Shown here one piece after another: positions 36,398-52,797 of a stretch of DNA of 64,000 bases. The stretch is from a virus (Duplodnaviria; Heunggongvirae; Uroviricota; Caudoviricetes), in IMG/VR virus record IMGVR_UViG_3300028833_002727; one strand, 5' to 3'. The notes below the pieces were generated by a model that was not told the origin of the DNA, ran no database searches, and saw nothing but the letters and a program-made list of their open reading frames with translations. How positions within the stretch are numbered: position 1 is the stretch's first letter; each line of letters begins with the position of its first letter. A program made the position numbers and the translations under genes.

Positions 36398-36540
36398 CAA
36401 ACCTCCTTTCGTTAAAAACTCCTGGGTTTTCAGAGTTTCCAAATCTGGTTAGCAGAAGCCCTTTCTTTTTTTAAAAAATTAACAAAAAAATGTAATACTT
36501 TTCGAACTTTACAAGTATTTATTATAAAAGAAAGTAAATT

Positions 36541-37122
36541 ATGGATAGTATTAGATTTTGTAAAAAACATGGCGAATGTGAACACGTGTTAAGTTCTGGT
36601 AAGTGGCGTTGTAAAAAATGCCGTAGTGAAGCGGTACAAAAACGTAGAGATAAGATTAAACTAATGTCTATTGAATATAAGGGTGGAAAATGTGAAATAT
36701 GCGGATATGACAAATGTATAGATGCATTAGAATTTCATCATTTAAATCCAAATGAAAAAGATTTTGGTATTGCCGAAAAAGGGTACACACGTTCATTTGA
36801 TAAAGTAAAAGAAGAGTTAGATAAATGTATTTTAGTTTGTGCGAATTGTCACAGAGAAATACACCATAAAGATAAAAAAAGAAATGTTTATGAATTGTTA
36901 AATGAAATTCACAATAAACAAGAAAAAGCAATTACGTCTAAAAAAGAAAGAAAACAAATACCAACCATAGATGAATTTATATCAGTATTTAAAATGTATT
37001 TAAACTTTACACAAGTTGGAAAATATTTTGGTGTCACAGATAATTCTGTGAGGAAATGGTGTAAAAAATATGGTTTACCAATCCATACTAAAGAATTGTG
37101 TAGGTATATACATAACATGTAA
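36541..37122 (+). CDS. HNH homing endonuclease with a C-terminal HTH-like module
   Basis: GKCEICGY...EFHHLNPNEKD...CANCHREIHH. Conserved leader AAGTATTTATTATAAAAG upstream. The stop overlaps the tRNA-Asn start. Confidence 0.75.
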   Translation: MDSIRFCKKHGECEHVLSSGKWRCKKCRSEAVQKRRDKIKLMSIEYKGGKCEICGYDKCIDALEFHHLNPNEKDFGIAEKGYTRSFDKVKEELDKCILVCANCHREIHHKDKKRNVYELLNEIHNKQEKAITSKKERKQIPTIDEFISVFKMYLNFTQVGKYFGVTDNSVRKWCKKYGLPIHTKELCRYIHNM

Positions 37123-37199
37123 CCGTAGTCAAGTGGCCAACGACAGCAGACTGTTAATCTGCCCCGAAAGGTTCCCAGGTTCGAATCCTGGCGGTTGCG
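37119..37199 (+). tRNA. tRNA-Asn(GUU), atypical 12-nt variable region
   Basis: Acceptor GTAACCG/CGGTTGC. Anticodon arm GCAGA-CTGTTAA-TCTGC. T-arm CCAGG-TTCGAAT-CCTGG. Confidence 0.55.
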
Positions 37200-37730
37200 C
37201 AAAAATCCAACACACCATTCCGTAAGTGGTTGAGGTTGATGTCTTTGTAGAGTATAGCGGTTACGGACGTGATTTTCTACATCTGGCTAAAGGCAATAAT
37301 ATAGTGAAACCTGGTTATCACGGCGCCTAGAGTGCGCAATTCGGGTTCAAATCCTGGCTATTGACAATAAGAGAGGCATACAGCAAAACAAAAAACTATT
37401 TTTTTAAAAACATTGAATTTGGGTTTCAAAAACGTTATAAAAAAGTGCCTCTTGTACTCAAGTATATATAGCCGCCACCCCCAAGTACAAGGGGCACACC
37501 AGACTTACATGGTTATCTCTTTTCCTGGAGAGATTGTAAAATAGGGCATTAGGAGCGAGTTAGTTGGATCAGAACTTATCTGATTAGAGAATTGCCCGCA
37601 GTCTGCGAACGTAAATAAGCAGTAATGGTAGATATGGGGAGCACTGAATTACGTAATAGATGTTTCATGAAACTATCTAAAAGTGACAAGCAAGCCACTT
37701 TAGCGTGTGATAAAACCGCACAGGGCGCCG

Positions 37731-38966
37731 ATAGTTGAGGGACAACAACTTTAAAAACCTCTATGGAGAAGTACAATTCATGGCAAAGTATAGACGGGGT
37801 TGAGGTGGTGCGCACTGTACTATAAAAAGAGTAAGGATAAGGAAAATGCGTAGCCTCACTTATAGTTGAAGGAAAACAACTTTAAAAAAGACAATAACCT
37901 ATGAATAATTAGGTGAGTTAAACCAGCTACACAAATGCTGTATGTGATAGTGATAAAATGCAGCCATGGAGGCTAACAAAAAGATTGCAAACTTTTTGAA
38001 TGCATTAATAACTTCCATGATTAAATAGTTGAAGGAAAACAACTTTAAAAACCAATATTAAACCACGAAAAAGACTAGAAGTTACAGCGTTGCTCCATTT
38101 TAGCCGAGGACGAAGCCGTGTGGGTCACTATTGAAATGAAGACTCTTTCCGGTGGGGAGAGTGATATTACTTTCACTAATGGAGGTGGGAGTGATAGGAT
38201 AGGCCAAAAACAGCACTATGTGGTTTATATTTAAAGTATTGCGCTGGTGATGAGAAGATACCAGTACCACAGGCCGTAGAAAGCAAAGAGAAATAATTGC
38301 GCAATAAAACTCTTGGGCGTACTACTGATAAGCGAAGATAAAGGTTAAAACTAGGCTGCTTCGGATACTTCAATATAGTTGAAGGAAAACAACTTAAATG
38401 AACCAAATTTAACTCCTATCGTCTAGTGGTTTAGGACATGCCGCGGTAAAGACATTGGTTCGAATCCAATTGGGAGTTCTTTGTGAAGAAAAACGGCTTA
38501 TAAAAAGCAACTTAGAAAAGTCGAGGAACTTCTGTTTATGCAATTTGACATTACGTCACCAGTCGATATTCGATGAGGCTCTGAATAGGTCGCACCTTAT
38601 AAGTAGGGGAATTGAGTACATAAACAGCGGGAGAAAGGTAAACTCGTGGGCTGGTTCGCTCTCCCAAATTTATAGTTGAAGGAAAACAACTCTAAAAACC
38701 CATACAGATGGAGTGAGAGATACTCGATTCGGTTGAAGGTGTCCTGCCGATAACAACGAGACATATCCTAAACATCGGGATAATTTTGATGTTCGGTTAG
38801 TTAGATACCGCTTGATAGGTGTACAATGTCAAGTTGCTAATCGTTAATAGGCCGACAGGTAATCTGTTCTTATTACGCGAGTTGCCTGAGTTCGAACACG
38901 CTTCTTCCGAACAGAACAGAAAAGTATCTTTTAATTATAGTTGAAGGAAACAACTTAAAAAATCCC
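37731..38966 (+). repeat. Six copies of the hairpin motif TAGTTGAAGGAAAACAACTTTAAAAA in an ORF-free structured region
   Basis: Copies at 37731-37759, 37861-37890, 38025-38053, 38375-38400, 38671-38700 and 38937-38966. The stem is AGTTG/CAACT with an 8-nt loop. Spacing is irregular (127-347 nt). Confidence 0.7.
38410..38477 (+). pseudogene. tRNA-like (Glu/Val-type body) with a disrupted anticodon arm
   Basis: Acceptor ACTCCTA/TGGGAGT. D-arm GTCTAGTGGTTTAGGAC. T-arm ATTGG-TTCGAAT-CCAAT. No foldable anticodon stem. Confidence 0.4.
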
Positions 38967-39470
38967 AATAATGGTGATGAAAAGGTAGCACTTATATGCC
39001 TCGTAAGCATATGGTTATACAATTCCGGATTAAAGTATGACTTATTGACTTCAATTCAATCGTCACCGAAATTACATATAAGTTGGCAGACTTATATAAT
39101 GTCCTTTTGGACAACCTTATCGGTTAATGATACTACTCCGATGAATGATGTAAAAAATGGGCTTACTTAACATCTGCCCCCGAATAGTTTCAATGCACAC
39201 TGCCAATTTGCATTGTTAGGAAAGTCGGTGTTCGTTCAGAAATCTCCTGATATACGACTCTAACTCGATTATATCAGTGTGAAGTATCTTTTAGTATAGT
39301 GAAGCAATCCTACTCAGTGGAAAGTGAGGGTGTGAGTTCCCATATCCAAGAAACAGAAAAAAATCAGAACACATGGAAAATCATAATTTTCTTAAAAAGA
39401 GGCTTAGGATGTGAATTGGAACCGTTAAGCAAATGTATGATTTGACTATCAGGAATAGACTGATACTTTT

Positions 39471-39542
39471 GCCCCGTTCGTCTAGTGGCCCAGGACATCG
39501 CCCTTTCACGGCGGAAACTCGGATTCGAATTCCGGACGGGGT
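39471..39542 (+). tRNA. tRNA-Glu(UUC)
   Basis: GCCCCGT...GTCTAGTGGCCCAGGAC-A-TCGCC-CTTTCAC-GGCGG...TTCGAAT...ACGGGGT. Confidence 0.85.
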
Positions 39543-40829
39543 ACAACAAAAGATTACTTATTACTGATCTTCTACTATAAATTTTATAAGTGTTAGGATT
39601 GGAAGTGTCCATACTTAATGAGTGGTTGCCCACCGGATCTATTAACGCCCATTGGTAACAGATGGAAACGCAACTTAGTCGGATAAATGGAAAAAGAAAC
39701 TTTAAGTTCAATTTTATGTGAGTGTAACTGAAAAGGAATTGCATAAAATATATTTACCTTTGGTGTAAAAACACGCTTATATAATTTTTTTACGTATATT
39801 TAAAACGAAGAGAGACGTACAGCAAAACTCACACTTTATTGGAAAACAGCAAATTTTCTACCAAAAGCAAATTGTCTCTTGTAAATGCTTGAATACTTTT
39901 CATAAGCAACATATACGGAAGACGTACAGCAAAGCATTTTTAGGATAACACTTTTAATGTTAAATTCTTGTCTTCTGAACTACAGTTGGCAACTGACTTA
40001 TAGTTGCGGAGAAAATCGGGATGATAACCCGTTGACTGTTGTGTGTTTTCAACATGACGTGAACACTCGCTGAGGTTAGAATTTTTCCGCATAGGCTAAT
40101 CACCAGAAATTCAAATTTTTCAACTCCACCATTTCATTGGTGGACAAAGACACGAAACCCTAACACGGTACTAAATTCGTGACTGCCAGGTTATAAGGTT
40201 GCTCCTGACAAAAATAGTTCTTAGGTGAACGGTATGCCAATAAGCTTTTAATTAGCGCCTGAAGCAGACTTTCTTCGGTGGGTGAAAGTCAAACCTGGGT
40301 CGCGCCAGGATTGGTAGCAAATAATAACTTATGTGCCTGAATAAGCGGTAGACTGCTGCTAAAGGACGTATTGTTGTACTGAAAAGTACGCGGTGCGGTT
40401 AACGGGCATTACGAAGCATAAAGTTGAATTAGCCACGGTTGGCCAACCGTGAGTGACGTAAGAACAGGACAAATCGTGTTTTATGACTGAGGTCTGTATC
40501 CTGTTGGAGGTAATCATTCCTCCCACCCATTCAAACTAAGAGAGTTGCTAACTCTTAGGGGTGTGACTGAATAATGTGCGTAGTGTTTGGTTTTATAGGT
40601 AGTCAGGAATCCTATCATTTGTTATTACCTTTTATGTCTTATGTTGTATTATTCTTTTTTGTGAGATATAAACAACTGTCCCAAGACATTAGACTTGTGA
40701 AAGGCTGTAGTGTTTGTTTTATTAGTTTTCTGTCAAAGTGCAGTAACCTTGACGTCAGGACAAAACATGAAAACTAATTTTTATCGTGGCAGAGTGAAAC
40801 GGATATGTCGATAAGCATTTCGGCAGACA

Positions 40830-40881
40830 TCATCAGAGGCTCATAACCTCTGGATAGTGGGTTCGACTCCCGCAGCCGCAA
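40830..40881 (+). other. Partial tRNA-like: anticodon arm (CAU), T-arm and 3' acceptor strand without a matching 5' half
   Basis: AGAGG-CTCATAA-CCTCT, GGATA, GTGGG-TTCGACT-CCCGC, AGCCGCA-A. No complementary TGCGGCT upstream. Confidence 0.3.
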
Positions 40882-40887
40882 CAATAT

Positions 40888-40961
40888 GATAGCGTAGCTC
40901 AACTGGTTAGAGTGCTGGCCTGTCACGCCAGTGGTTGCGGGTTCGAGTCCCGTCGCTATCG
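40888..40961 (+). tRNA. tRNA-Asp(GUC)
   Basis: GATAGCG/CGCTATC acceptor. CTGGC-CTGTCAC-GCCAG anticodon arm. Confidence 0.85.
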
Positions 40962-40998
40962 CTAAAGATAGACGTACAGCGAACAACTAACTCATTTG

Positions 40999-41082
40999 GG
41001 AACTATGGGTCGTGGGTTCGAGTCCCGCCCGCCCGACTAAATAACACAAATCGGGCGGTAGCTCAGTTGGCAGAGCAATAGT
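40999..41082 (+). other. Permuted tRNA locus 1. The 3' half (41002-41036) lies upstream of the 5' half (41052-41082).
   Basis: The 3' half is ACTAT-GGGTC-GTGGG-TTCGAGT-CCCGC-CCGCCCG-A. A 15-nt spacer follows. The 5' half is CGGGCGG-TA-GCTC-AGTTGGCA-GAGC-A-ATAGT. The acceptor strands are perfectly complementary and the anticodon-stem halves ATAGT/ACTAT are complementary. Leader ATAGAC is complementary to trailer GTCTAT. Confidence 0.45.
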
Positions 41083-41489
41083 AGAGAAAAAAATGTCTAT
41101 TGTAATTTTATGTTGTGTTATTTTCTTTTTGTAAATATGAACAACAGTGAGTAAACACTATAACATCTGGCGGAGAGGTGTGGATTTGTTCCACGTTTCC
41201 AGCGCGGTAACGCTCTAAAATTCCAGTAGCCCGTAGGTGAGCGGGTGAAGAGACTGTGGAGGGAAGAGGCAACGAACCCTGTGAAACAGTAATATCATAA
41301 GCCAAATTTCGGTTGGTAGATAATCACCTTCCAGTATTGATGCAAACTTTGTAATAGGGTGAAACAATGTTACATCGGGCAACCCCGTTTGCGTTTCTAA
41401 GCGGCTAGGATGTAGGTTGACACTTGGTAATACGAGTGGGGCTACGGACACCGACAAGGCTTTTTGGTTGCTCATCAATACTTTTTAAT

Positions 41490-41564
41490 GGGGGATTAGC
41501 TCAGTCTGGCTAGAGCACCTGCTTTGCAAGCAGGGGGTCGTGGATTCGAATTCCACATCCTCCA
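41490..41564 (+). tRNA. tRNA-Ala(UGC)
   Basis: GGGGGAT...CCTGC-TTTGCAA-GCAGG...GTGGA-TTCGAAT-TCCAC-ATCCTCC-A. Confidence 0.85.
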
Positions 41565-41637
41565 CTTTTGTAAAAAAAAAGTTCGAAATAAGTATTTTTC
41601 CACACTAATGAAGTATTTATATATAAACAATAAAAAT

Positions 41638-42552
41638 ATGTATATAGATATTTCAACAGAAGAAAAAAAACAAGAATTTATACTACTTTTAAGTAGGTTT
41701 AAACGGAAAGGGGATATATTCAAATATTATCAAGTATCAGACAACACAAAAAATACAAGATATTTAAACAATATATTACAAACATTAGGTATAAACAATG
41801 AGTTTTTTTCCAAAAAAAGAAAAGAAAAGAAATTTTGTTTAAAGTGTGGTAAAGAATTAAAATATGGACAACATAAATTTTGTAGTAACAGTTGTTCGGC
41901 ATCTTACAACAATAAAAATAGAGAATATAGTGACGAAGTAAAACAAAAAATACGTGTTGGTGTTTTATTGTCTATGGGTATAACAGATATTGAAACATAT
42001 AGAAATACCAGCACAGAAAAAAAATGTGGGTACTGTGGTAGAATGTTCACTACAGCAAAAAAACATCAAAAATTTTGTTGTCAAGAATGTTCAAGAAGAA
42101 ACAGAAGATTACAAGAAATAAAAAATAAGGACGAAAGGGATATATATAAAAGTCAAACTAAATTCAATTTTAGTTTAAATGCTTATCCAGATGAGTTTGA
42201 TTTTTCCTTAATCAAAGAAAATGGTTGGTATCAAGCGACAAATCATGGTGATAACTTACGTGGCATTAGCAGAGATCATATGTTTTCAGTAGATGAAGGA
42301 TATAAACAAAATATAGACCCGTATTTAATTTCTCATCCAGCAAATTGTAAATTGATGAAACATGAAGACAACTTTAAAAAGAAAACAGAATGTTCAATAA
42401 CACTTAATGAACTAAAACAAAGAGTTAATGATTGGAATAAAAAATACGGAGTATATGAAAATAAAATAGATTATACAAAATTAGAAAAATTTAAGGAAAT
42501 GCAGGGTTCGAATCCCGCATCCTCCACAACTAATAATAATGTTAAACAATAA
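41638..42552 (+). CDS. HNH homing endonuclease with N-terminal CxxC zinc-finger repeats
   Basis: GISRDHMFSVDEGY...NCKLMKHEDN HNH motif. The start is placed after the conserved leader GAAGTATTTATATATAAAC. The 3' end of the ORF overlaps a degenerate copy of the tRNA-Ala 3' end. Confidence 0.7.
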   Translation: MYIDISTEEKKQEFILLLSRFKRKGDIFKYYQVSDNTKNTRYLNNILQTLGINNEFFSKKRKEKKFCLKCGKELKYGQHKFCSNSCSASYNNKNREYSDEVKQKIRVGVLLSMGITDIETYRNTSTEKKCGYCGRMFTTAKKHQKFCCQECSRRNRRLQEIKNKDERDIYKSQTKFNFSLNAYPDEFDFSLIKENGWYQATNHGDNLRGISRDHMFSVDEGYKQNIDPYLISHPANCKLMKHEDNFKKKTECSITLNELKQRVNDWNKKYGVYENKIDYTKLEKFKEMQGSNPASSTTNNNVKQ

Positions 42553-42682
42553 AAAACGAAACAACTATGAAAAATCACATTCATTGGTAGATTCGTAGAA
42601 GTCGTTCTCCTAATGTGTTTTTGTTAATCTAAGGAGGTAACAAAAATCAAAATTAAATTAACAAAAAATAAACACATTAAAA

Positions 42683-43090
42683 ATGGAGAATAAAACTATG
42701 AAAACTACAGAACAAATCAATCAAATTAAAACATTAAAACGCTTAATTGCGGAAATGGTAGCAGAACACAAGGCTACTAAATTAAACGAAGGACGCTACG
42801 GTAAATTCCGTAACGAAAGAGAACGCCTATTCATTGCATATACGGCTTACTATATGCTTCGTCATGGCATCGAAGACTTTGATGCATACATCGAGTCAGT
42901 AATGAACAAATTAAAACCAGAAAAACAAAATAAGGAGTATCCTTACCAGTTCTTCGGTGTTGAATTAGAGTCATTACCTCGTTGGAATAGATGGGGAAGC
43001 GTTAAGAATGCAGTAACCCATTGCATCGAATGCTTGGACAAAGTTATTGCTAAGGAGCAAGAAAATGCAGTTGAAGATGGAAACGAGTAA
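42683..43090 (+). CDS. Hypothetical protein
   Basis: ORF with a GGAG ribosome-binding site. Confidence 0.4.
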   Translation: MENKTMKTTEQINQIKTLKRLIAEMVAEHKATKLNEGRYGKFRNERERLFIAYTAYYMLRHGIEDFDAYIESVMNKLKPEKQNKEYPYQFFGVELESLPRWNRWGSVKNAVTHCIECLDKVIAKEQENAVEDGNE

Positions 43091-43376
43091 CCGCCTTTAC
43101 ATCCTCGTAAGTGAGGATTTAGCACCAATCTACGGCGCTGTACAGGGCGGGCACGCAATAGCGCAGTGGATGTTGGAACATTCCGACAATCTCTACTGGA
43201 AAAACGAAACTGTTGTGTATTTAAGTTGTAATGTTGAAAAGATGAAGTATCTACTTGAATGGGATGATATATCCATATTCAGAGAACCTGATCTTAATAA
43301 CAAACTTACAGCAATCGCAGTAGTTGGTAATCCAAGAAATGAACGAATGTTCAAGAAATTGAGACTTCTTCAATGA
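43065..43376 (+). CDS. Pth2-like peptidyl-tRNA hydrolase (start uncertain: 43047, 43065 or 43077)
   Basis: YILVSEDLAPIYGAVQGGHAIAQW resembles the PTH2 GKxAAQxxHAA core. The C-terminal KKLRLLQ resembles the PTH2 tail. Confidence 0.5.
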   Translation: MQLKMETSNRLYILVSEDLAPIYGAVQGGHAIAQWMLEHSDNLYWKNETVVYLSCNVEKMKYLLEWDDISIFREPDLNNKLTAIAVVGNPRNERMFKKLRLLQ

Positions 43377-43418
43377 ATGTCATAAAAAATTTGGGCGTTG
43401 AAATATACGCCTGAATAT

Positions 43419-43490
43419 GACCTATTAGTTCAACGATAGAACGGTACCCTCTAAAAGTATGCGTCGCGGGTTTGACTCCTGCATAGGTCA
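43419..43490 (+). tRNA. Putative amber-suppressor tRNA(CUA)
   Basis: Acceptor GACCTAT/ATAGGTC. D-stem GTTC/GAAC. Anticodon arm GTACC-CTCTAAA-AGTAT with U33 and A37 in place and a C31-A39 mismatch. T-arm GCGGG-TTTGACT-CCTGC. Confidence 0.45.
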
Positions 43491-43655
43491 CAAATGTTTA
43501 TATGTAGTAGTTACATGTTTAGAACGATCAACAAAACACAACATATGAAAGCATATGGGATAAAATGGATTCTGCTATTACACCGCAGTTCATAAGTATG
43601 TTTACCGTGGAGAATCGGGAATCGGTAATGTAACTATTAACTTGTAATCATAGTT

Positions 43656-43740
43656 GCCACATTGGGACAGTTGGTCGACTCCGCTTGACTTGTAATCAAG
43701 ATGCTTATGCGCGCCGTCGGTTCGAATCCGGCATGTGGCT
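43656..43740 (+). tRNA. tRNA with anticodon UGU (Thr) but an 85-nt type-II-like body (15-nt variable region)
   Basis: GCCACAT/ATGTGGC. CTTGA-CTTGTAA-TCAAG. GTCGG-TTCGAAT-CCGGC. Confidence 0.5.
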
Positions 43741-44461
43741 CTAAATAAGGTTGACGGTAGATGTCATTAAATCATTCTACAGAACTAAATTTACTGAGTT
43801 CAGTACTCCTCACGGGGAGTTCAAAGTAAAAAGGGGTGCCGAGTCCTCTTGAGCCTTATGACAGTTTACGTTCAATATTCAGAGGGGAGTAGCTTTGAGC
43901 GAAATTAAAACATCTGACCCTTATTTGGTAGTTGGACGTTATCCTATATTGTCCGTCTGATGTTCATGCGCAGAACAGTCATTCGTAAAAATCGTAATCG
44001 AACACCTCTTTAGTTCGAAATGAAGGGTTGTGGTAAATCTAATGCTTAGTGTTACGGATAAGATAGCAACGCAGTATGCTAACAAGACTATGCTGCTCAT
44101 TTTTTGGACGCGGTTGTTTTATGGTTAAAAAACATCCTAGCCTCTTCGGAGGTTGAACCAATAGTATCACCCAACTCGCAGAGTTAGGACGCTAAACCAG
44201 TGGCGCGCCAAAGATATTCGTCAGGCGCTGAGCCTTTCGCCAGAAGGCAGTGGTGATATTTTTAATAGTCGCTCATCCGACTTATTTTCCTGGTTTTGTA
44301 TAAATCAGGTGGTGGCCAAGCCGTGGGTTTTTTACCAAATACCCTGCATCGTTTTTTGGGTTGGAGTTAAGCATTGGCAAGATTGTGATGCTCATTAGTG
44401 AATTCGGTTAAAGTCCGAAAGCTTCATCCCCCTTACAAAACGGTGTGAACTAATAAATTTT

Positions 44462-44812: not shown

Positions 44813-45120
44813 CAATAGTAGAACGTATAGTTTAATGATAGCGCGCTAAAACATGTAGAACAACGGCGTAGTAAGTCGTAGGTATAGGTTTGATTCCTTT
44901 TGCGCTCTGAATCAGTCACTGATGTTGTCAAGACTCGTTCTTGGCTGGGATATAAAAGCATTACACTGGTAAAATTTTTCTGAAAAAAACACAAAATATC
45001 ATATAAAAGTTGTATATTTAACTTGAAGAGAGACTTACAGCACAATTTAAGATTTCCACAATCTAAACCAAACGTCTCTTGACAAAAAATAAATACAATC
45101 AAAAAAAACAATCACAAGTA

Positions 45121-45651
45121 ATGCCTAAAAAGGGATTAGTAATTAACTTAATTGGCGGGCCTGGTAGTGGTAAGTCAACCACAATGGCTGGAGTTTTCTA
45201 TAAACTCAAAAAAAACGGTGTAAATTGCGAGATTGCTACGGAGTTTACCAAAGAAAAAGTCTGGGAAGAAGATTATAGGATGCTGGACGATCAGTTGTAC
45301 ATCATTGCTAAACAATTCCACAGAATTAGTCGTTTAATCGGAAAAGTAGATGTAGTGATTATGGATACATCATTGCTAAGTTCCGTAATATACGATAAAA
45401 GCGGTAGTCAAAACCTGAAAGGCTTGTGTATTGAGTGTTTCAATCAGTTTGATAACATGGTATTCTTCATCGACAGAAGTGACATCAAGTATCATACAGA
45501 GGGAAGAGTAGAGTCACAAGAAAAAGCAAAGGAAATTGACGAAAGTTACAAAAAACTCATGGAAGAGAATAATATACCATACACAGTTGTAACTAATGAA
45601 AATTGTGTTGATGTTATTTTCCGACAATTGAAAGAAAAAGGATATATTTAA
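45121..45651 (+). CDS. P-loop NTPase/kinase (AAA_28/NadR-RNK-like or nucleotide/polynucleotide kinase-like)
   Basis: Walker A INLIGGPGSGKST and Walker-B-like VVIMDTSLLS. The ATG at 45121 is preferred over the TTG at 45079. Confidence 0.5.
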   Translation: MPKKGLVINLIGGPGSGKSTTMAGVFYKLKKNGVNCEIATEFTKEKVWEEDYRMLDDQLYIIAKQFHRISRLIGKVDVVIMDTSLLSSVIYDKSGSQNLKGLCIECFNQFDNMVFFIDRSDIKYHTEGRVESQEKAKEIDESYKKLMEENNIPYTVVTNENCVDVIFRQLKEKGYI

Positions 45652-45757
45652 GGAGTTCTGCCTTAAATGTTCAAAAATAACCTATAAGAGAGACTTACAG
45701 CAAATTTCTACTTTATTTCTGCGTTAATTAGAAAAAAAAAGAATGTCTCTTGTATTT

Positions 45758-45848
45758 GGAGGGTTGGCAGAGTTGGTCGATTGCGTCGGTCTTGAAAACC
45801 GAAGATCCCGTAAGGGGTCCGGGGGTTCGAATCCCTCACCCTCCGCCA
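45758..45848 (+). tRNA. tRNA-Ser(UGA) with encoded CCA
   Basis: GGAGGGT/ACCCTCC. TCGGT-CTTGAAA-ACCGA. Long variable arm. GGGGG-TTCGAAT-CCCTC. G73 then CCA. Confidence 0.85.
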
Positions 45849-46163
45849 AAATATGTATAAGTCGACTATCGGGTTAGAGATGATATGAAGCGCAGTGAGA
45901 GACTGCAACTAAACGGGTTCGACTCCCGCTTGGGCACAATTGCAATAGGAATCATTCTTATACTTAACTAAGCCTATTCCTGCTCGTAGGTATCCGAGTG
46001 AGCAGAGGGGGTCGAGCTGCTGACAGCCATACGTATAAGTAGCAGGTACTTCTTACCTTAAAGAGGCTTTTCTCTGGGTTCAGGGGCGATTTATTTGTTG
46101 TTCGTGAACAATAAATAGCATGTTGGATGCTTCAGGTGGAGGGATACCACCATCAATTTTTAT

Positions 46164-46238
46164 CTGGGTATAGTTCAGTCCGGCTAGAACACTACATTTG
46201 GGATGTAGGGGTCGCAGGTTCGAATCCTGCTATCCAGA
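46164..46238 (+). tRNA. tRNA-Pro(UGG)
   Basis: CTGGGTA/TATCCAG. CTACA-TTTGGGA-TGTAG. GCAGG-TTCGAAT-CCTGC. Confidence 0.8.
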
Positions 46239-46255
46239 CAATGTAAAAATTGAAT

Positions 46256-46906
46256 ATGGGAAAAAGTAGACCTTATACGTGGAAATGTGATGTTTGTGGT
46301 GAAGTTTTTAAAACTAGAAAATTATTATATTCCCATTGGAATGAAAAACCAGAACACCATATTATTAAAACATCTGCAACTTATAAAGGTGAATATTATT
46401 GTAAATATTGTAATAAATTTTGTGATCAGTTAAATTCGTTACATTTACATGAAAAACATTGTATTTTAAATCCAAATCGCATTGATGGCGCATCAAAAGG
46501 TAGAACAATGACAGATGAGTTTAAGAAAAAACAATCTGAAAGAATGAAAGAACGCCATAAAAATGGGACAGCTGTTTCATTAGCACATCTAAGAAGTAAA
46601 GAAAAACCGTCATATCCAGAGCAGTGGCTAATGGAAGTAATAAAAAATGAAAATATTAATTCAGAGTATATTAGAGAATATAAATTTCACACATTTTCTT
46701 TAGATTTTTATTGGGAGAAAAAGAAAAAAGTTATTGAAATGGATGGTAGATTTCATAAAATTTCTGAATATCAAAAAGATTGTGATAAAAGGAAAGACGA
46801 ACAACTTAAAAAAGATGGAATAGATGAAATGAGAATTGATTGGGAATATTGTTATAAACATCCAAAAGAAGTAATTAAAAAAATAAAAGATTTTATTGGA
46901 GAGTAA
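46256..46906 (+). CDS. Homing-endonuclease-like protein with two C2H2 zinc fingers and a C-terminal DUF559/Vsr-like PD-(D/E)xK domain
   Basis: C2H2 fingers CDVCGEVFKTRKLLYSHWNEKPEHH and CKYCNKFCDQLNSLHLHEKH. LDFYWEKKKKVIEMDGRFH...DEMRIDWEY is Vsr-like. The stop overlaps the tRNA-Ser(GCU) start. Confidence 0.55.
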   Translation: MGKSRPYTWKCDVCGEVFKTRKLLYSHWNEKPEHHIIKTSATYKGEYYCKYCNKFCDQLNSLHLHEKHCILNPNRIDGASKGRTMTDEFKKKQSERMKERHKNGTAVSLAHLRSKEKPSYPEQWLMEVIKNENINSEYIREYKFHTFSLDFYWEKKKKVIEMDGRFHKISEYQKDCDKRKDEQLKKDGIDEMRIDWEYCYKHPKEVIKKIKDFIGE

Positions 46907-46985
46907 TGCTTGATGGTGATAGCGGCAACCTGCTAAGTTGTGCGCACCTGAAAAATGGTGTCTGGTTCGATTCCAGTGCTCTCCG
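46898..46985 (+). tRNA. tRNA-Ser(GCU)
   Basis: GGAGAGT/GCTCTCC. GCAAC-CTGCTAA-GTTGT. Long variable arm CACC...GGTG. TTCGATT T-loop. Confidence 0.8.
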
Positions 46986-48079
46986 CCTTTTCAAAGAGCC
47001 AATTTGAAGAGTGTTTCTTAATGATTATTTATCGTTAAAATAATCATGTGACTCCATTGTTTCAAAATGAATCAATTCGTGGCTGGCTACGGTTACCAGA
47101 ACCCTTTTCACTTGCAGGTTAAAGTATATGTTTGTGGGTAGAACAAAAAACCCTCATTTTGGTATACTTTGTTGGCTCAAAGTATACTTTCTAAAAAACA
47201 GTGGCTTGGCTGCATACCATAAGAACTGCTCCGAGTCCGATTTTATAAATGTCTAAGAAAGGTATCGGTACGAGTGGGGAGAGCCATGAGCACAATGACT
47301 GCTATACGCTGCACAACGTCACCGGACGATAAGCACTGAGCCTAACGGTACACACTAAGGATAATAGTCGAGTACTATCAACTCTCTAATGGTGTGTGAA
47401 GCTCTTATGCGTTGCTCGAAGAATAGACAATTTGCAATGTGGCGCATAAGGTTATAGCCAGATACCAATGAAAGTACCGAAGACATTTTTACTCTAATCT
47501 CAAACCTTGGGGTCTTGTTTTATTTCTGAATCCCCATGCATATAGTAATTATCGGATGTCGACTGAAAGAGATTACGATTATGGTTCGTCCCTGAGATTA
47601 CGTTATAGTTACAATTATTCGTTCACACTTATCGAAGGCTTACCTAGGGTTTTTGGGTAAAAGTGAATTCATAGAGAGCCGAATTGTAATTTTTATACAA
47701 CACCGAATCCATTCATGTGATATTCGATATAACTGAGAACTAATCACGTTTTCCTGAATGGCGTTGCTACTCAATGGTATGGAGGCATACTGAGTACCGT
47801 AGGCGTTACGAAAACATAGCCTGGCTTTCATTTTTAAGGTGTTGTTACTTTTACAGAGGATGCGAAACATCTAAGTCATAGGCGTACGCTGCTGAGATTA
47901 CATCAATGATTGCAGATTCAACTAAACGATTAGTAGCACCTGATGAGTAGGCGTCGTAACTCATCTTAACTGTTTTTTAGTCAATCAATATGTCCACGTC
48001 TTTCGGGACGTTAAATGTTGTTTACCAATGGTAAGGAACAATGGTTTCCAACGCTGAACCAGTTAATCAGCGTTTAGAT

Positions 48080-48151
48080 GGGTTTGTTAGTTTAACGGTA
48101 GAATGAGACGTTGTGGCCGTCAAGACAATGGTTCGACTCCATTACAGACCC
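48080..48151 (+). tRNA. tRNA-His(GUG) with a genomically encoded G-1 (48080) and C73
   Basis: G-GGTTTGT/ACAGACC-C. AGACG-TTGTGGC-CGTCA. AATGG-TTCGACT-CCATT. Confidence 0.65.
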
Positions 48152-48292
48152 CCCACTATAAAAATAATAAATAATAAATGGTGTTAATTATTTTGTGAAC
48201 CTTAAAATTTTAAAGAAAAAAAAACAAAAAAAATGAGTTCGAAACGTTATTTTTTCACTTTTAAAAATATTTATATATAAACATATATTGAT

Positions 48293-49057
48293 ATGAAAGT
48301 AAGTGATTTAAAAAAAGAAGAAGTAATTCACGCGTTACAACAAAGTAAAACAAAATTAGATTTTTTACATATTTTTGGTTATAAAAATAATGGAAGTGGT
48401 TATCGTTTTGTTGAAAATGTTATTAAATATTTTAAAATTAATATATACGATTATTTAGATAAAAAAATCACAGAAGACGAATATAATAAACACCCATCGT
48501 GCTGTAAATATTGCGGTAAAAAATTGAATTATAGTAAACGTAACAACAAATTCTGTTCGAAATCATGTTCTGCTTCGTATAATAATTCAACTAGGGTTCA
48601 TTCTATAACCTCAAGATTAAAAACTTCAAAAGCATTATCAGGGGAGAATGCAACGAAAGAAATTAAAGAATGTAAATTGTGCGGTAGAACATTTATAGGT
48701 GATAAAGATTTTTGTTCTGGTAAATGTAGAAAAACATTCGAAAATAATGATAAACTTGATAGATGGTTGAATGGCGAAAATTTTTTACGTGGAGCAACAC
48801 AAGTGCCTACTTTTGTGCGTAAATATTTAATGAATAAATATAATTGTCAATGTCAAAGATGTGGGTGGGGAGAAGAAAATCCATACACACATACGGTACA
48901 ATTAGAAATACATCATATTGATGGTGATTGCACAAATAATAAAAAAGAAAATTTACAATTATTATGCCCGAATTGTCATTCACTGACTGAAAATTTTGGT
49001 TCATTGAATAAAATGTCACATAGATTTCATAGGAAAAGAGTGACATTACAAAATTAA
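48293..49057 (+). CDS. HNH homing endonuclease
   Basis: CQCQRCGW...LEIHHIDGDCTNNKKENLQLLCPNCH. Conserved leader upstream. A tRNA follows 5 nt downstream. Confidence 0.8.
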   Translation: MKVSDLKKEEVIHALQQSKTKLDFLHIFGYKNNGSGYRFVENVIKYFKINIYDYLDKKITEDEYNKHPSCCKYCGKKLNYSKRNNKFCSKSCSASYNNSTRVHSITSRLKTSKALSGENATKEIKECKLCGRTFIGDKDFCSGKCRKTFENNDKLDRWLNGENFLRGATQVPTFVRKYLMNKYNCQCQRCGWGEENPYTHTVQLEIHHIDGDCTNNKKENLQLLCPNCHSLTENFGSLNKMSHRFHRKRVTLQN

Positions 49058-49061
49058 ATAA

Positions 49062-49136
49062 CGGCTCGTAGCTCAGCCTGGTTAGAGCACCACACTGATA
49101 ATGTGGGGGTCGCAGGTTCAAATCCTGCCGAGCCGA
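49062..49136 (+). tRNA. tRNA-Ile(GAU)
   Basis: CGGCTCG/CGAGCCG. CCACA-CTGATAA-TGTGG. GCAGG-TTCAAAT-CCTGC. Confidence 0.85.
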
Positions 49137-49146
49137 CAAAATATAT

Positions 49147-49220
49147 GACAAGGTGCCTGAGTGGACTAAAGGGGCGCTCTGCAAAAGCGTTGTTCGTCGG
49201 TTCGAATCCGACCCTTGTCT
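49147..49220 (+). tRNA. tRNA-Cys(GCA)
   Basis: GACAAGG/CCTTGTC. GCGCT-CTGCAAA-AGCGT. GTCGG-TTCGAAT-CCGAC. Confidence 0.85.
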
Positions 49221-49394
49221 CAAAAAAAAATGTAACTTTTTGAAAATAACAGATATTTATTATAAAAAGGAAATAAAATGGGTAAATACGGAAAAGATAT
49301 GAAGAAGTTTGTCGGCTATTTTGGTAAATGGCTTAATCTATTTTCGTGTTCACAAGTTAAAAGGTGATACTTTATTTGGATCAGAGATATTCAA

Positions 49395-49433
49395 ACCTTG
49401 ATACTGTGAACAAACGCGTATCAAGGTTTTTTT
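49395..49433 (+). terminator. Rho-independent terminator
   Basis: ACCTTGATA...TATCAAGGT stem followed by TTTTTTT. Confidence 0.55.
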
Positions 49434-49440
49434 ATTGCAA

Positions 49441-49478
49441 AATATTTGGTTATTTGAAATAAAAGTAGTATCTTTGCA
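49441..49478 (+). promoter_or_regulatory. Promoter repeat copy 3
   Basis: TTTG at 49445-49448 and TAtcTTTG at 49469-49476. Confidence 0.55.
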
Positions 49479-49490
49479 TCGTGAAATAAT

Positions 49491-49575
49491 GACCTCGTAG
49501 CTCAGCTGGTTTGCGTATGCTTAGAGCACCTGCCTTTTAAGCAGGGGGTCGTGGGTTCGAATCCCACCGGGGTCA
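49491..49575 (+). tRNA. tRNA-Lys(UUU) variant with a ~10-nt insertion in the D-loop (85 nt). It is a possible pseudogene or variant.
   Basis: GACCTCG/CGGGGTC. D-loop AGCTGGTTTGCGTATGCTTA. CCTGC-CTTTTAA-GCAGG. GTGGG-TTCGAAT-CCCAC. Confidence 0.5.
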
Positions 49576-49738
49576 CAAGAATCAATTCGGTGGATGGTAA
49601 CATGTACATTGGGCGGTTGTACACTATGTGTCGACGGGAGTGCATGACTTGGTTCTTTTTTTGAAAATTAAAATAAAAAACGTATATTTATAAACGAAGA
49701 GAGACTTACAGCAAAACAACATTATCTATCAATCCATG

Positions 49739-49825
49739 TTAAGGAAGGGGTCGCGGGTTCAAGTCCCGTCATCGTCTCAAAAAAAAAATGTATGACGATG
49801 TAGCTCAGTTGGTTAGAGCACTTAA
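49739..49825 (+). other. Permuted tRNA locus 2. The 3' half (49739-49777) lies upstream of the 5' half (49794-49825).
   Basis: The 3' half is TTAAG-(9 nt)-GCGGG-TTCAAGT-CCCGT-CATCGTC-T. A 16-nt spacer follows. The 5' half is GACGATG-TA-GCTC-AGTTGGTTA-GAGC-A-CTTAA. The acceptor and anticodon-stem halves are complementary. It sits inside a unit bounded by AGAGAC...GTCTCT. Confidence 0.45.
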
Positions 49826-49962
49826 AAATAGAAACCGTCTCTTGTATTTTTTGAAAAACAAAACAAACAAACAGAAACAATGATGAAGACTAAGAAACAT
49901 ATGAAGAAAACGTAATATCGGTGACAAATTGTGTCACTGGTTACTATTCAACGTGCCCGTGG

Positions 49963-50026
49963 CGCAATTGGCTAGCGCAACAGACTTTTAATCTGTGGGT
50001 TGCGAGTTCGAGTCTCGTCGGGCACA
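49963..50026 (+). tRNA. tRNA-Lys(UUU)
   Basis: GTGCCCG/CGGGCAC. GCGC-AATTGGCTA-GCGC. ACAGA-CTTTTAA-TCTGT. GCGAG-TTCGAGT-CTCGT. Confidence 0.8.
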
Positions 50027-50111
50027 CACATAAATGTTTTTTAGAAAAAAATAATTAAATTGCAGTACTTTTTCAAACCCAGAAGTATTTATTATATATA
50101 AAAAGATAAAT

Positions 50112-50804
50112 ATGGGTATGAGAACAAACAAAACAAAAGAAGATTTTATAGAAGCAGCAAAACATAGTTTTAGTATTGCTGGAATGTGTAGATTTCTTGG
50201 TTGGAAACCATCTGGAAGTTATAATGTGATTAAGAAATATATCCGCGAATACGATATTGATACATCACATTTTACAGGAAAGAAATGCGTTGGAAGAGTT
50301 GCATCTAACAAATTGAGTGCAATTGAGTATTCGAAAAGTTATTATTGTAAAAGTGCAACTTTACTGAAAAAACTTATTGAAGAAGGTTTGAAAGAACACA
50401 AATGTGAAAAATGTGGTAGAACAGAGTGGGAAGGTGATAAAATACCACTAGAACTACATCATATTGATGGAAATCATTATAATAATGTTTTTGATAACCT
50501 AATCGCGTTATGTCCAAATTGTCATGCACAAACAAATGGATATAAGGGGAGGAAAAAAAGATTTTGTTCTGAGTGTGGAAAAGAGATAACAAGATATAGT
50601 AAAACAGGGCTATGTAATGTATGTAATCATACAATAAATCAACGAAAAGTTGATTGGCCTACAAAAGAAGAATTAGAATTGTTACTGGAAACAAATAGTA
50701 TGGAAGCAATAGGAAGGCTTTACAGTGTTTCTGGCACAACAGTTAAAAAATGGAAAAACAAATATAATATAAAAATGAATAAGCGTAACAAGAATATTAA
50801 GTAG
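50112..50804 (+). CDS. HNH homing endonuclease with a C-terminal HTH-like module
   Basis: HKCEKCGRTEWEG...LELHHIDGNHYNN...LCPNCHAQT. Conserved leader AGAAGTATTTATTATATATAAAA upstream. Confidence 0.8.
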   Translation: MGMRTNKTKEDFIEAAKHSFSIAGMCRFLGWKPSGSYNVIKKYIREYDIDTSHFTGKKCVGRVASNKLSAIEYSKSYYCKSATLLKKLIEEGLKEHKCEKCGRTEWEGDKIPLELHHIDGNHYNNVFDNLIALCPNCHAQTNGYKGRKKRFCSECGKEITRYSKTGLCNVCNHTINQRKVDWPTKEELELLLETNSMEAIGRLYSVSGTTVKKWKNKYNIKMNKRNKNIK

Positions 50805-50916
50805 TAATGGTGTAAATCTTAATGATTGCACCAATTAAGGCCTGCAAGCATTAAGGTGATGCACGAAACTCTTAATTTCGGGAAGAGGGGTCAGTACCCT
50901 CGCGGGCCACACATAT

Positions 50917-51095
50917 TGCGGGGTAGAGCAGAGGCAGCTCGTCAGGCTCATATAATGTGATAAGCATTAACAATCTTATCGAGACTATTGTTTAAAGTTC
51001 CGTATTATAATCGGACTGGAAATCAGCTGTAAGTGGGTTCGAAACCCATCAATAGTCCAACCTGAAGGTCGGTGGTTCGAGTCCACCCCCCGCAA
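50917..51095 (+). tRNA. tRNA(CAU) (Met or Ile2) carrying a ~107-nt insertion/intron in the anticodon loop (50954-51060)
   Basis: TGCGGGG/CCCCGCA acceptor. GAGC-AGAGGCA-GCTC D-arm. TCAGG-CTCATAA-[107 nt]-CCTGA. AGGTC. GGTGG-TTCGAGT-CCACC. The insertion carries its own hairpins. Confidence 0.5.
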
Positions 51096-51251
51096 CACTT
51101 TTGATGGTTTGAATTAGGAAATCACACGCAGAGCGCGAGGTGTCATGGAGCGCACTCTACCGTTCGAGATGGAGTACACGGCGTTTTTTCACGGAAAGTA
51201 TCCAATCCTAGGATTTTTGTTTACTGGAAGTGGTTGTACGGAACAACATTT

Positions 51252-51351
51252 GCCGAGATAGTGCAGTGGTTAGCATGTCGAATCAATACTGACGTGAAAA
51301 CGTTATAGGGGTTGCTCTTCGAAGACTGAGGTTCGATTCCTTGTTTTGGCT
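51252..51351 (+). ncRNA. tRNA-like element C (100 nt), same T-arm as element A
   Basis: GCCGAGA/TTTTGGC with two G-U pairs. GTGC-AGTGGTTA-GCAT. A 5-7 bp stem with the 9-nt loop AATCAATAC. A 31-nt variable region. TGAGG-TTCGATT-CCTTG. Confidence 0.35.
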
Positions 51352-51583
51352 CAAAAAAAAATGAAAAAAAAGTTGATAAATGTTCACTTTTTAAAATAAT
51401 AAGGTATATTTATTATAGAAACAAAACAAAAAACATGGGAAGTAATTAAAATATGAAGTTGTATCTTGGACATATGGTGTATGGGTTTGGCTACCGTTTT
51501 GGTTGGCTAGGTGACTCTGTGTGTTCATAGGTAGAGGTTTTTTGAAACATGTTTGAAAACTATATATAAAGCCATGAGGCAAA

Positions 51584-51625
51584 ACCTTGAAAGATGAACA
51601 CAACCAAATCTTCCAAGGTTTTTTC
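51584..51625 (+). terminator. Putative rho-independent terminator
   Basis: ACCTTG...CAAGGT stem then TTTTTT. Confidence 0.4.
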
Positions 51626-51757
51626 ATTATATAGGAGTGTAGTACAATGGCTAGTATGGCGGTGTAATGTAATAAAAATCGAACTAAATCATATTTTTTT
51701 GGATAAAAATTATACTTTTTTTCGAACTAAGAAGTATTTATATAAAAACAAAAAAAT

Positions 51758-52696
51758 ATGGAAGAAAACGATTTTATTGAAAAACTACGTAAAAATGGAG
51801 ATAAATGCCGCAATATGTACGAATTATGCCTTAAACTTGGGATTACTAGTATTGGTGGTGAGACATATCGTGAAATTAGAAGTATTGCTGAAGAAAATAA
51901 TATTACTTTAGTTTTTAATGGTTTATCAAAAAAGATAACACAAAAAAATCAAGAAAAAAAACTTGAAGAATTATTGTGTGATGATAGTGTTATAACTAGT
52001 AATAAGTTGAAAATGAAAATAATTGAGAATGGGTTAAAGCCATATAGATGTGAATGCTGTGGAAATACTGAATGGAACGGAAAACCAATACCGCTTGAAT
52101 TACACCACATTAATGGAAAACATAATGACAATCGTATAGAAAACCTTCAATTACTATGTCCAAATTGTCATGCACAAACAGATAACTATTGTGGAAAAAA
52201 TACTGGTAATAAAAAGAAATTAAGAAAGATAGTAAAGGTTAACAAAACAACTGGTAATTTATCTTATGTTAATAAACAATATTTGATTAATCTATTATAT
52301 TTACATCCAATTAAAGAGGTTGCAAAACAGTTGGAAATTAATGAGTATCGTTTAAAATATTGGTTAAAGAAATTAGAAATACATGTATCAAATAAGTGGA
52401 GGGAAGATTTACATAAAAATAACCCTGAAATATTTGGAATATGTGAATATTGTGGAAAACGATTTATAAAAAAAACATTAGAACAAAAATTTTGTAATCA
52501 AGAATGTAGTAAATTGTCAACTAGAAAAATAGAGATAACAAAGGAAAAACTGATACATAGTTTAAAAGAAAACAAAAGTTTTGTACAAACAGGAAAGATG
52601 TTTGGTGTAAGTGATAAATGTGTTATTAAATGGTGTGCAAGATTTGGTATACCAAATAGAAAAAAGGAAATGATAGAATACATTAAACGTATATAA
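51758..52696 (+). CDS. HNH homing endonuclease with a C-terminal HTH-like module
   Basis: YRCECCGNTEWNG...LELHHINGKHNDN...LCPNCHAQT. Leader AAGAAGTATTTATATAAAAAC. tRNA-Trp follows 5 nt after the stop. Confidence 0.8.
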   Translation: MEENDFIEKLRKNGDKCRNMYELCLKLGITSIGGETYREIRSIAEENNITLVFNGLSKKITQKNQEKKLEELLCDDSVITSNKLKMKIIENGLKPYRCECCGNTEWNGKPIPLELHHINGKHNDNRIENLQLLCPNCHAQTDNYCGKNTGNKKKLRKIVKVNKTTGNLSYVNKQYLINLLYLHPIKEVAKQLEINEYRLKYWLKKLEIHVSNKWREDLHKNNPEIFGICEYCGKRFIKKTLEQKFCNQECSKLSTRKIEITKEKLIHSLKENKSFVQTGKMFGVSDKCVIKWCARFGIPNRKKEMIEYIKRI

Positions 52697-52700
52697 ACAC

Positions 52701-52772
52701 AGGAGTGTGGTGTAATGGCAAACATAAACGGCTCCAACCCGTTAGATGTGGGTTCGATTCCTGCCACTCCTG
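52701..52772 (+). tRNA. tRNA-Trp(CCA)
   Basis: AGGAGTG/CACTCCT. AACGG-CTCCAAC-CCGTT. GTGGG-TTCGATT-CCTGC. Confidence 0.8.
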
Positions 52773-52797
52773 CAAAAAAATTAAAAAAAAGTGCAAA

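Follow-up and report, generated by a model that had tools for sequence, protein, structure and literature searches.

Why should a very large phage carry nuclease genes one after another among its transfer RNA (tRNA) genes, and how did they come to lie there? The question is raised by the IMG/VR record IMGVR_UViG_3300028833_002727, of which a stretch of 64,000 nucleotides (nt), here called the window, was analysed. Between 35 kb and 59.7 kb the window holds 33 tRNA genes recognized by ARAGORN and a transfer-messenger RNA (tmRNA) gene, all on the + strand, and with several further tRNAs detected solely by Rfam or by intron-aware ARAGORN the array totals 40 genes. The region from 36.5 to 52.8 kb, inside this array, contains six nuclease genes, likewise all on the + strand, which are sited between tRNA genes and never within an intron or intein. 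We regard it as probable, at roughly three chances in four, that these are free-standing homing endonuclease genes (HEGs) in a megaphage tRNA array, which spread by intronless homing.

Domains were assigned by profile searches with Pfam (curated cut-offs) and PHROGs, and the genes are named here by their first position. The preliminary description of this DNA had listed five HNH genes and one zinc-finger/Vsr-like gene; all six open reading frames (ORFs) exist, but four of them are clear HNH genes, and a fifth is HNH-like. The four are 36541 (36541-37122, 193 amino acids (aa), PHROG 2255 at 2.5e-33), 48293 (48293-49057, 254 aa), 50112 (50112-50804, 230 aa) and 51758 (51758-52696, 312 aa, with a C-terminal helix-turn-helix (HTH)), the last two belonging to the phrog_10822 family. 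All four match PHROGs HNH families and possess the His-Me finger core, with aligned motifs LE(L/F/I)HH...N...C(P/A)NCH, and 48293, 50112 and 51758 also exceed the Pfam cut-off for HNH. Gene 46256 (46256-46906) encodes an endonuclease of the DUF559/Vsr fold with an N-terminal C2H2 finger, PF04480 (DUF559) being matched over residues 119-213 at 32.7 bits against a cut-off of 20.6. Gene 41638 (41638-42552, 304 aa) has zinc ribbons and an RDH...HPANC...N core; it matches phrog_23051, a family with no assigned function, and more weakly the HNH family phrog_1271 (1.8e-12), in an alignment that spans the conserved RDH...HPANC...N residues. Fold searches with an AlphaFold2 (AF2) model of its product (predicted local distance difference test, pLDDT, 87) gave no significant structural neighbour, and because the assignment comes from a profile match only, the gene is termed HNH-like. 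No GIY-YIG domain was matched in any of the six genes by Pfam or PHROGs, and sequence searches of the PDB with 51758 and 46256 returned no match. In alignments the proteins are modular, with N-terminal HTH-like segments, CxxC zinc ribbons and C-terminal HTH modules variously combined, the zinc ribbons and HTH modules being the DNA-binding parts.

The typical cassette consists of a promoter-like leader of 70-140 nt and a nuclease ORF of 190-310 codons that is packed against a tRNA gene. The stop codon of 36541 overlaps tRNA-Asn(GUU) (37119-37200) by 4 nt, and 46256, which starts 17 nt past tRNA-Pro, has its stop inside the first bases of tRNA-Ser(GCU) (46898-46987), a 9-nt overlap. Gaps of 4 nt separate 48293 from tRNA-Ile(GAU) (49062-49137) and 51758 from tRNA-Trp(CCA) (52701-52773). 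Gene 50112 is followed, 33 nt on, by a non-canonical tRNA-Lys(CUU)-like gene (50838-50912, T loop GTCAGTA, read by eye) that was missed by tRNA gene calling and occupies the place of the canonical tRNA-Lys(CUU) of HEG-less relatives. This gene is the direct neighbour of 50112, and not, as first proposed, the tRNA(CAU), which lies beyond it at 50917-51096 and carries a 107-nt insertion. The initial impression that each nuclease gene is followed by a tRNA within 0-110 nt, sometimes with an overlap of the stop codon, is upheld as regards the tightness of the packing, but the linked tRNA can also lie upstream, as does the intact tRNA-Ala(UGC) (41490-41565) of 41638.

A leader common to all six cassettes had been proposed; it is found before the five HNH(-like) genes, but not before 46256. 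Its core, [AG]TATTTAT(T)ATA, occurs exactly seven times in the 64 kb against about 0.7 expected, and all seven copies are on the + strand, 12-20 nt upstream of an ATG, five before HNH(-like) genes and two before small ORFs that are described further below. When two mismatches were allowed the pattern performed no better than chance, so that only the exact core is significant. The leaders comprise 36470-36540 for 36541 (TACTTTTCGAAC-N6-GTATTTATTATA-N14-ATG, with the same architecture in the relative L023), 41566-41637 for 41638 (a degenerate tRNA 3'-end-like motif, GTTCGAAATAAGTATTTTTCCACA, at 41581-41604, then GTATTTATATA), 48156-48292, including a spacer, for 48293 (GAGTTCGAAA...TTTTTTCAC...ATATTTATATA), 50028-50111 for 50112 and 51664-51757 for 51758. 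These leaders presumably act as promoters.

Collinear relatives were reached through two proteins of the array, and among these relatives, which share the tRNA order of the window, presence/absence polymorphism of the nuclease genes, for which a comparison had been suggested at the outset, is indeed found. The closest, L023, is 93-97% identical to the window across 18 kb and is without 46256, 48293 and 50112. At these HEG-less sites 26 nt separate tRNA-Pro from tRNA-Ser(GCU), 124 nt tRNA-His from tRNA-Ile, and 9 nt tRNA-Lys(UUU) from tRNA-Lys(CUU), and at all three junctions the leader is absent as well; the spacing between the two Lys genes is 5-9 nt in L023 and L015, both of which are without 50112. 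L023 retains 41638 (98% identity) and 51758, and its copy of 36541 is just 79% identical although the flanks are about 95% identical. The more distant L015, which covers 20 kb of a contig of 388 kb, has the tRNA order of the window (Asn, Glu, Asp, Ala, Thr, Gln, Ser, Pro, Ser, His, Ile, Cys, Lys, Lys, Lys, an insertion-bearing tRNA, Trp, Phe, Tyr, Gly, Gly). It has no HNH gene at any of the five HNH(-like) sites of the window, and carries HNH genes with the same leader elsewhere, namely between Asp and Ala, between Ser(UGA) and Pro, between Ile and Cys, after Gly(UCC), and inside an insertion in tRNA-Leu(UAA); this last copy (2778-3251 of L015) thus resides within a tRNA insertion, unlike the six genes of the window. 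A truncated HNH gene lies upstream of tRNA-Tyr in L015, and a truncated HNH fragment lies between two tRNAs in L012. Homologues of 46256 follow tRNA-Pro in both L015 and L012. Two further relatives, L018 and L019, are without 41638, and in them tRNA-Ala is joined straight to the downstream sequence.

The nuclease genes are not the only sequences that differ at these sites. The tRNA alleles of the window and L015 fall into two classes, either 96-100% or 63-74% identical. Those linked to nuclease genes include tRNA-Asn(GUU) with 67% identity, the tRNA-Lys(CUU)-like gene with 64%, and the tRNA-Ala(UGC) linked to 41638, which is 99% identical in L015. The allele of tRNA-His(GUG) (48080-48155) is unique to the HEG-bearing genome, being 63% identical to that of L015, which is also the allele that L023 carries. 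In comparison with L023, every block that was replaced has a sharp boundary on its left and reaches on its right as far as the end, or into the interior, of the downstream tRNA, so that the HEG brings another allele of this tRNA with it. In this way tRNA-Ser(GCU), which differs from the alleles of both L023 and L015, was replaced together with 46256, tRNA-His and tRNA-Ile from about nt 25 on together with 48293, and tRNA-Lys(CUU) together with 50112. As far as static genomes can tell, the junctions at Ser(GCU), His/Ile and Lys(CUU) suggest co-conversion of flanking markers with the HEG.

Three junctions moreover retain pieces of a second tRNA allele. A degenerate copy of the tRNA-Ala 3' end had been noticed within the 3' end of the 41638 ORF, and closer inspection bears this out, as 42501-42528 matches 21 of 24 bases of 41541-41565. 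The piece represents the last 27-28 nt (T arm and acceptor 3' strand) of another tRNA-Ala allele, in which U70 of the G3:U70 identity pair is retained; of its three differences, two compensate each other as a base pair of the T stem. The intact tRNA-Ala genes of L018 and L019, which are two further alleles, end exactly at the remnant site and are followed by the same downstream sequence as in the window. A second partial duplication, which had escaped the preliminary description, is found upstream of the 51758 cassette, where the first 31 nt or so of tRNA-Trp (51633-51663) break off after the 5' strand of the anticodon stem; the intact tRNA-Trp was delivered with the cassette, and a single segment of L015 (18482-18515) aligns to both 51630-51663 and 52697-52730 of the window. 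In L015 itself, 16179-16208 contains the first 26 nt of a window-type tRNA-Ile, ahead of another tRNA-Ile, which is itself followed by a leader and an HNH gene. The Ala locus is thus encountered in four states: two HEG-less alleles in L018 and L019; tRNA-Ala, leader, HEG and remnant in the window and L023; and, in L015, the tRNA-Ala allele of the window followed by the first 39 nt of the 41638 leader and no HEG. The boundaries of this leader stump fall at a short CCACA-(A/C)TAAT repeat, and for this reason the arrangement is consistent with loss of 41638 from L015 by deletion.

The link between nuclease and tRNA gene extends well beyond these relatives. A profile scan of IMG/VR with the 41638 family yielded 147 relatives, of which 80 loci were kept for an analysis of tRNA context. 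All but two of them (78/80) have tRNAs within 1.5 kb, and in 39 of the 80, on unrelated viral contigs, tRNA-Ala(UGC) lies no more than 150 nt from the ORF, while Ala(UGC) makes up 10% of all tRNAs in the 80 loci. Among the 39, the tRNA is upstream in 27, downstream with an overlap of the stop codon in 16, and on both sides in 4. Homologues of 58-62% identity on the unrelated contigs L020 and L021 likewise lie downstream of tRNA-Ala(UGC). In 12 of the 80 loci tRNA-Cys lies upstream. An acceptor 3' strand of the CTCCAC type is present within 70 nt upstream of the ATG (observed at 12-60 nt) in 40 of 53 non-redundant loci against 4% of controls, and often a T-loop-like TTCRA stands before it; the instance in the window is 41581-41604. 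The 50112/51758 family behaves similarly: of 80 IMG/VR loci, 72 have a tRNA within 1.5 kb, and in 24 tRNA-Leu(UAA) lies just upstream. For the DUF559 family of 46256 the IMG/VR scan gave 9 weak loci, one of them with a tRNA, and was uninformative. Cultured jumbo phages also encode relatives of 41638, namely GAP32, Serratia BF, Erwinia pEa_SNUABM and Vibrio 2.275.O, where they are annotated as hypothetical proteins; in GAP32 the relative sits in a tRNA cluster, and phrog_23051 and GAP32 gp472 are annotated as hypothetical only. Relatives of 50% identity are encoded in the genomes of Lak phages, in records that are unannotated.

Homing without an intron is the simplest way to account for these arrangements, and would proceed as follows. 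During co-infection the nuclease would cut a related genome in its HEG-less allele of the neighbouring tRNA gene, and the break would be repaired from the HEG-bearing genome, such that the HEG is copied together with the linked, presumably uncuttable, tRNA allele (co-conversion). Where homology is confined to one side, the other side would be joined illegitimately, leaving behind a shortened piece of the old tRNA that ends at about the position of the break. The presumed break points would then lie in the T arm of tRNA-Ala and at nt 24-34, from the D stem to the anticodon stem, of tRNA-Ile and tRNA-Trp. The HEG could later be lost by deletion. The original suggestion of mobile endonuclease genes that target tRNA genes is in this form supported by the polymorphism, by junctions at or in tRNA genes, by the partial tRNA copies and by the linkage of one family to Ala(UGC), and from these we infer that the tRNA genes are cleaved.

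Several observations weigh against this interpretation. The catalytic fold of 41638 receives no support from the fold searches of its AF2 model, and 46256 has neither a leader nor an informative family in IMG/VR. The putative target sites are read from the junctions alone. One nuclease family may occur beside different tRNAs, as 36541 lies at tRNA-Asn and its L015 homologue between Ile and Cys, and specificity would therefore be loose or often changing. The IMG/VR loci are partly redundant, so that the counts overstate the number of independent events. Finally, tRNA alleles differ between relatives also where no HEG is adjacent (Glu, and one Lys), and general mosaic recombination must therefore contribute.

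This last point leads to the rival that survives best, in which the nucleases are passive passengers: the array, with its conserved T and D loops, would be a recombination hot spot in which blocks of tRNA genes and neighbouring ORFs are swapped between co-infecting phages by ordinary or illegitimate recombination, and the nucleases would ride along without cutting tRNA genes. The replaced Glu and Lys-a alleles fit it, and so does L012, a mosaic in which the segments matching the window are differently ordered, while crossovers in the conserved loops could yield partial tRNA copies. However, every polymorphic block between the window and L023 here holds a nuclease gene or the tRNA-Leu insertion, the leader is missing together with the ORF at the three HEG-less junctions of L023 (just the Ala junction of L015 keeps a stump, of 39 nt), and each of two nuclease families favours one tRNA partner throughout unrelated phages, which hitch-hiking does not predict. 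We accordingly hold passive transport to be unlikely as the main explanation.

Domestication is less likely still, and in our estimate quite improbable. Here the nucleases would be retained because they benefit the phage, for example by degradation of the tRNA regions of competitors (marker exclusion) or by regulation or processing of the array, with the leaders serving as promoters for downstream tRNAs and mobility being secondary. The ORFs are intact, the same leader precedes two conserved small ORFs, and four of the six ORFs overlap the tRNA gene that follows or stop no more than 5 nt short of it, so that co-transcription with this tRNA is to be expected. Against this, three of the six genes are dispensable in the 95%-identical L023, truncated copies exist in relatives, and the occupied sites vary between genomes. 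Insertion of the integrase or transposase type, with the duplicated tRNA ends as att sites or target-site duplications, may be dismissed, for although a partial duplication of a tRNA 3' end is the classic integrase signature of textbooks, the inserts are just 0.9-1.0 kb long and encode nothing but the nuclease, with no recombinase gene, and the duplicated pieces are diverged alleles of unequal length on either side of the insert rather than identical repeats.

Homing by free-standing endonucleases is thus the preferred explanation, and it has a well-characterized precedent. SegB of phage T4 is a free-standing GIY-YIG homing endonuclease encoded in the T4 tRNA gene cluster and absent from close relatives; its site of 27 bp includes an 11-bp TpsiC motif, and it drives the inheritance of the surrounding tRNA genes (PMC2330249). 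The genes of the window resemble segB in being free-standing within a phage tRNA cluster, in being absent from close relatives and in carrying neighbouring tRNA genes along. They differ in that the nucleases are HNH(-like) or of the DUF559/Vsr fold rather than GIY-YIG, in that six cassettes are crowded into 16 kb, and in that the array displays replacement by diverged isoacceptor alleles and leftover truncated tRNA copies, cleavage being here putative. T5-like phages encode the HNH endonucleases F-TflI, II and IV among their tRNA genes, which have been described as nicking or site-specific enzymes of T5 DNA. These too are HNH ORFs interspersed among phage tRNA genes, in an unrelated phage group. 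Jug jumbo phages of the gut, with genomes of 360-402 kb and Bacteroides or Phocaeicola as hosts, contain hundreds of stand-alone HNH and PD-(D/E)xK endonuclease genes along with small group I introns (PMC12880540). The 388-kb contig of L015 is similar in size, and the phage of the window may be related to them. The HEGs of Jug phages are described as interrupting protein genes, with no mention of tRNA in that paper (PMC12880540).

No new principle is therefore claimed, as homing in a tRNA cluster was established by T4 SegB in 2008; the addition consists of nuclease families that track particular tRNA genes across large phages. If homing is accepted, a single array would offer a natural time series, from no HEG through HEG plus tRNA remnant to leader stump, in which a HEG is gained, the tRNA allele is replaced and the HEG is lost again. 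Two nuclease families that are widespread among phages are consistently tied to particular tRNA genes, and this linkage explains much of the mosaicism and tRNA pseudogene debris in the tRNA clusters of large phages. The junction remnants would also predict cleavage sites, and the nucleases could become sequence-specific tools.

A bolder reading, which is possible but held with considerable doubt, is that HEG cassettes are the main engine of tRNA-allele turnover in megaphage arrays, each lineage being specialised on one tRNA gene and spreading a cut-resistant allele, with the target copy in the leader as an autoregulatory operator. The specialisation may be on Ala(UGC) for the 41638 family and on Leu(UAA) for the 50112/51758 family, and the allele that is spread may sometimes be non-canonical. 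I-TevI represses its own expression through an operator that mimics its homing site. By pure analogy, the leader of the 41638 family, with a degenerate copy of the presumed target (the tRNA 3' end) beside a promoter-like element, may contain such an operator, although the motif may simply be a fossil of the insertion site. Were this reading true, the array, together with the YrlA-like RNAs, insertion-bearing tRNAs and RNase P RNA-like segment described below, would be a self-contained, fast-evolving tRNA production unit shaped by selfish nucleases.

The two small ORFs behind HEG-type leaders belong to what had been taken for leader-only remnants at 49240-49330 and 51385-51530. They turn out instead to be small units, conserved in relatives, which consist of the leader, an ORF of 25-29 codons and a terminator hairpin. 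The first (49222-49440, +; 29-codon ORF at 49278-49367), which is not itself a HEG, is situated in a stretch 95% identical to L023, and the second (51352-51630, +; 25-codon ORF at 51453-51530) encodes a peptide that is conserved in L015 (18298-18381). The two peptides are paralogues (MGKYGKDMKKFVGYFGKWLNLFSCSQVKR and MKLYLGHMVYGFGYRFGWLGDSVCS, respectively), and the 3' end of each small ORF is able to pair with sequence in or beside the following terminator. These units may represent leader-peptide attenuators or small RNAs.

Some tRNA genes of the array are themselves interrupted. The tRNA-Leu(UAA) at 35629-36397 (+) contains a 683-nt insertion (35664-36346) between U34 and A35, which is the classical site of group I introns; the exon before it ends in U and the insertion itself in G. 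As the Rfam group I intron model did not match the 683-nt insertion, only its position and its boundary bases speak for its class. L023, which is otherwise about 95% identical, lacks the insertion; L015 has it, and there it hosts an HNH gene with the cassette leader. Anticodon-loop insertions of 21-107 nt are found in four more tRNA genes (35081-35193, 50917-51096, 51252-51352 and 53464-53639, all +). They are too short for group I introns and resemble the short "enigmatic introns", one of them itself tRNA-like, in some of the 30-35 or so tRNAs of Lak megaphages (PMC6784885). Lak genomes differ from the window in being recoded and in their GC content of 26%, that of the window being put at 32-40% for this comparison, and HNH or homing is not mentioned in the same paper (PMC6784885). 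The 107-nt insertion of the tRNA(CAU) contains a hairpin and a nested tRNA-like fold and is 98% conserved in L015, as against flanks of about 76% identity. The tRNA at 43419-43490 (+) was detected by Rfam at 52 bits and was not called by ARAGORN in the window; its counterparts (L018 1961-2033, L023 6862-6934) are called as tRNA(CUA), of the amber-suppressor type, and it may be relevant to stop-codon recoding in this phage group.

Other elements of the array are RNA-like. Modules composed of a tRNA 3' half followed by a 5' half are located at 40968-41100 and 49700-49842 (+), and also at L015 17319-17457, L018 3167-3310, and L023 4517-4647 and 11226-11364. Each has a perfect 7-bp acceptor stem that is closed by an A-rich loop and enclosed by a 7-bp outer stem, and they score as YrlA, a Y RNA-like tRNA mimic, with E = 3e-5 to 6e-7, below the Rfam gathering score. 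In Mycobacterium smegmatis YrlA has a 7-bp acceptor stem, is cut by RNase P and receives CCA (PMC4201824). The modules of the window share this 7-bp acceptor stem, and an initial view of them as permuted tRNA genes in need of splicing was dropped in favour of YrlA-type mimics after the Rfam matches and the latter report. No Ro60/Rsr gene was seen among the window ORFs scanned.

A repeated stem element, (A)AG-AGAGAC-N-(T/C)ACAGCAAA ... GTCTCT-TGT, of 51-144 nt, occurs at 37373-37451, 39811-39879, 39918-39975, 45029-45079 and 45689-45750 (+) and in the two YrlA-like units. The five short elements have a 7-bp stem and the conserved motif ACAGCAA in common with the YrlA-like modules, and further copies are present in relatives. 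The stem covaries (AGAGAC, AGAGGC, GAAGAC, ATAGAC, GAAGGC); six motif instances found by pattern and a seventh (40968) found by eye all have the partner strand, compared with 10% for random 6-mers, in a test that is biased because the instances were picked by complementarity. Several copies lie 5-7 nt downstream of a TATATTTA box and are therefore probably 5' ends of transcripts. A scan of IMG/VR with the motif AGAGAGAC-KTACAGC returned a single locus, L005, which is spurious, and features that would support a retron-like element, bulge-helix-bulge (BHB) splicing or a known small ribozyme were not seen in the stem element.

Directly after tRNA-Arg(ACG), a segment of 175 nt (56159-56333, +) resembles RNase P RNA. 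It matches RF00373 at 44 bits (E of about 1e-9 to 1e-11), short of the gathering score of 84, with the conserved regions GAGGAA, AAGUC and ACAGAA aligned and the entire specificity domain missing; its folding energy gave no signal (z = -0.2). The segment may be a phage-encoded minimal RNase P RNA, for which no report turned up in the literature searched. In addition, from about 37735 to 38960 (+) a hairpin motif, ATAGTTGAAGGAAAACAACTT(T/A)AA, occurs six times and separates ORF-free, GC-richer segments of 120-300 nt, one of which (38661-38962) is 88% conserved in L012; the segments may form an array of non-coding RNAs that are released by processing.

With a GC content of 29-42% the window is AT-rich, and the same sequence is present in four metagenome samples. 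A megablast comparison of the region with INPHARED gave only tRNA-sized matches and no close relative among deposited phages. Homologues of window genes are carried on contigs of 388-498 kb, and promoter elements of the Bacteroidota type (TTTG-N19-TAnnTTTG), read by eye, recur in the window; on these grounds the source is an uncultured megaphage, very large and of the gut type, with a host that is probably a member of the Bacteroidota. A repeat of about 45 nt, AAATATTTGGTTATTTGAAAAAA-N-GTATCTTTGCA, at 34956-35000, 35216-35255, 49439-49478, 52796-52835 and 60397-60430 (+) and at 28037-28001 (-), fits this consensus and points both to the host phylum and to a second class of promoter, different from the leader of the HEGs.

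Protein genes also lie within the array or beside it, at 43074-43376, 45121-45651, 59697-60359 and 60457-62580 (+). IMG/VR scans with the AAA_28 protein and with a 135-aa protein of the array gave no relatives, and homologues of the AAA_28 gene (65-70% identity) were unusable for synteny, their contexts being without tRNA. The genes include a small hydrolase (phrog_3668), which to judge from its sequence may be peptidyl-tRNA-hydrolase-like, an AAA_28 kinase-like protein, a DNA methyltransferase fragment and a TonB-dependent receptor-like protein, the last an unusual gene for a phage.

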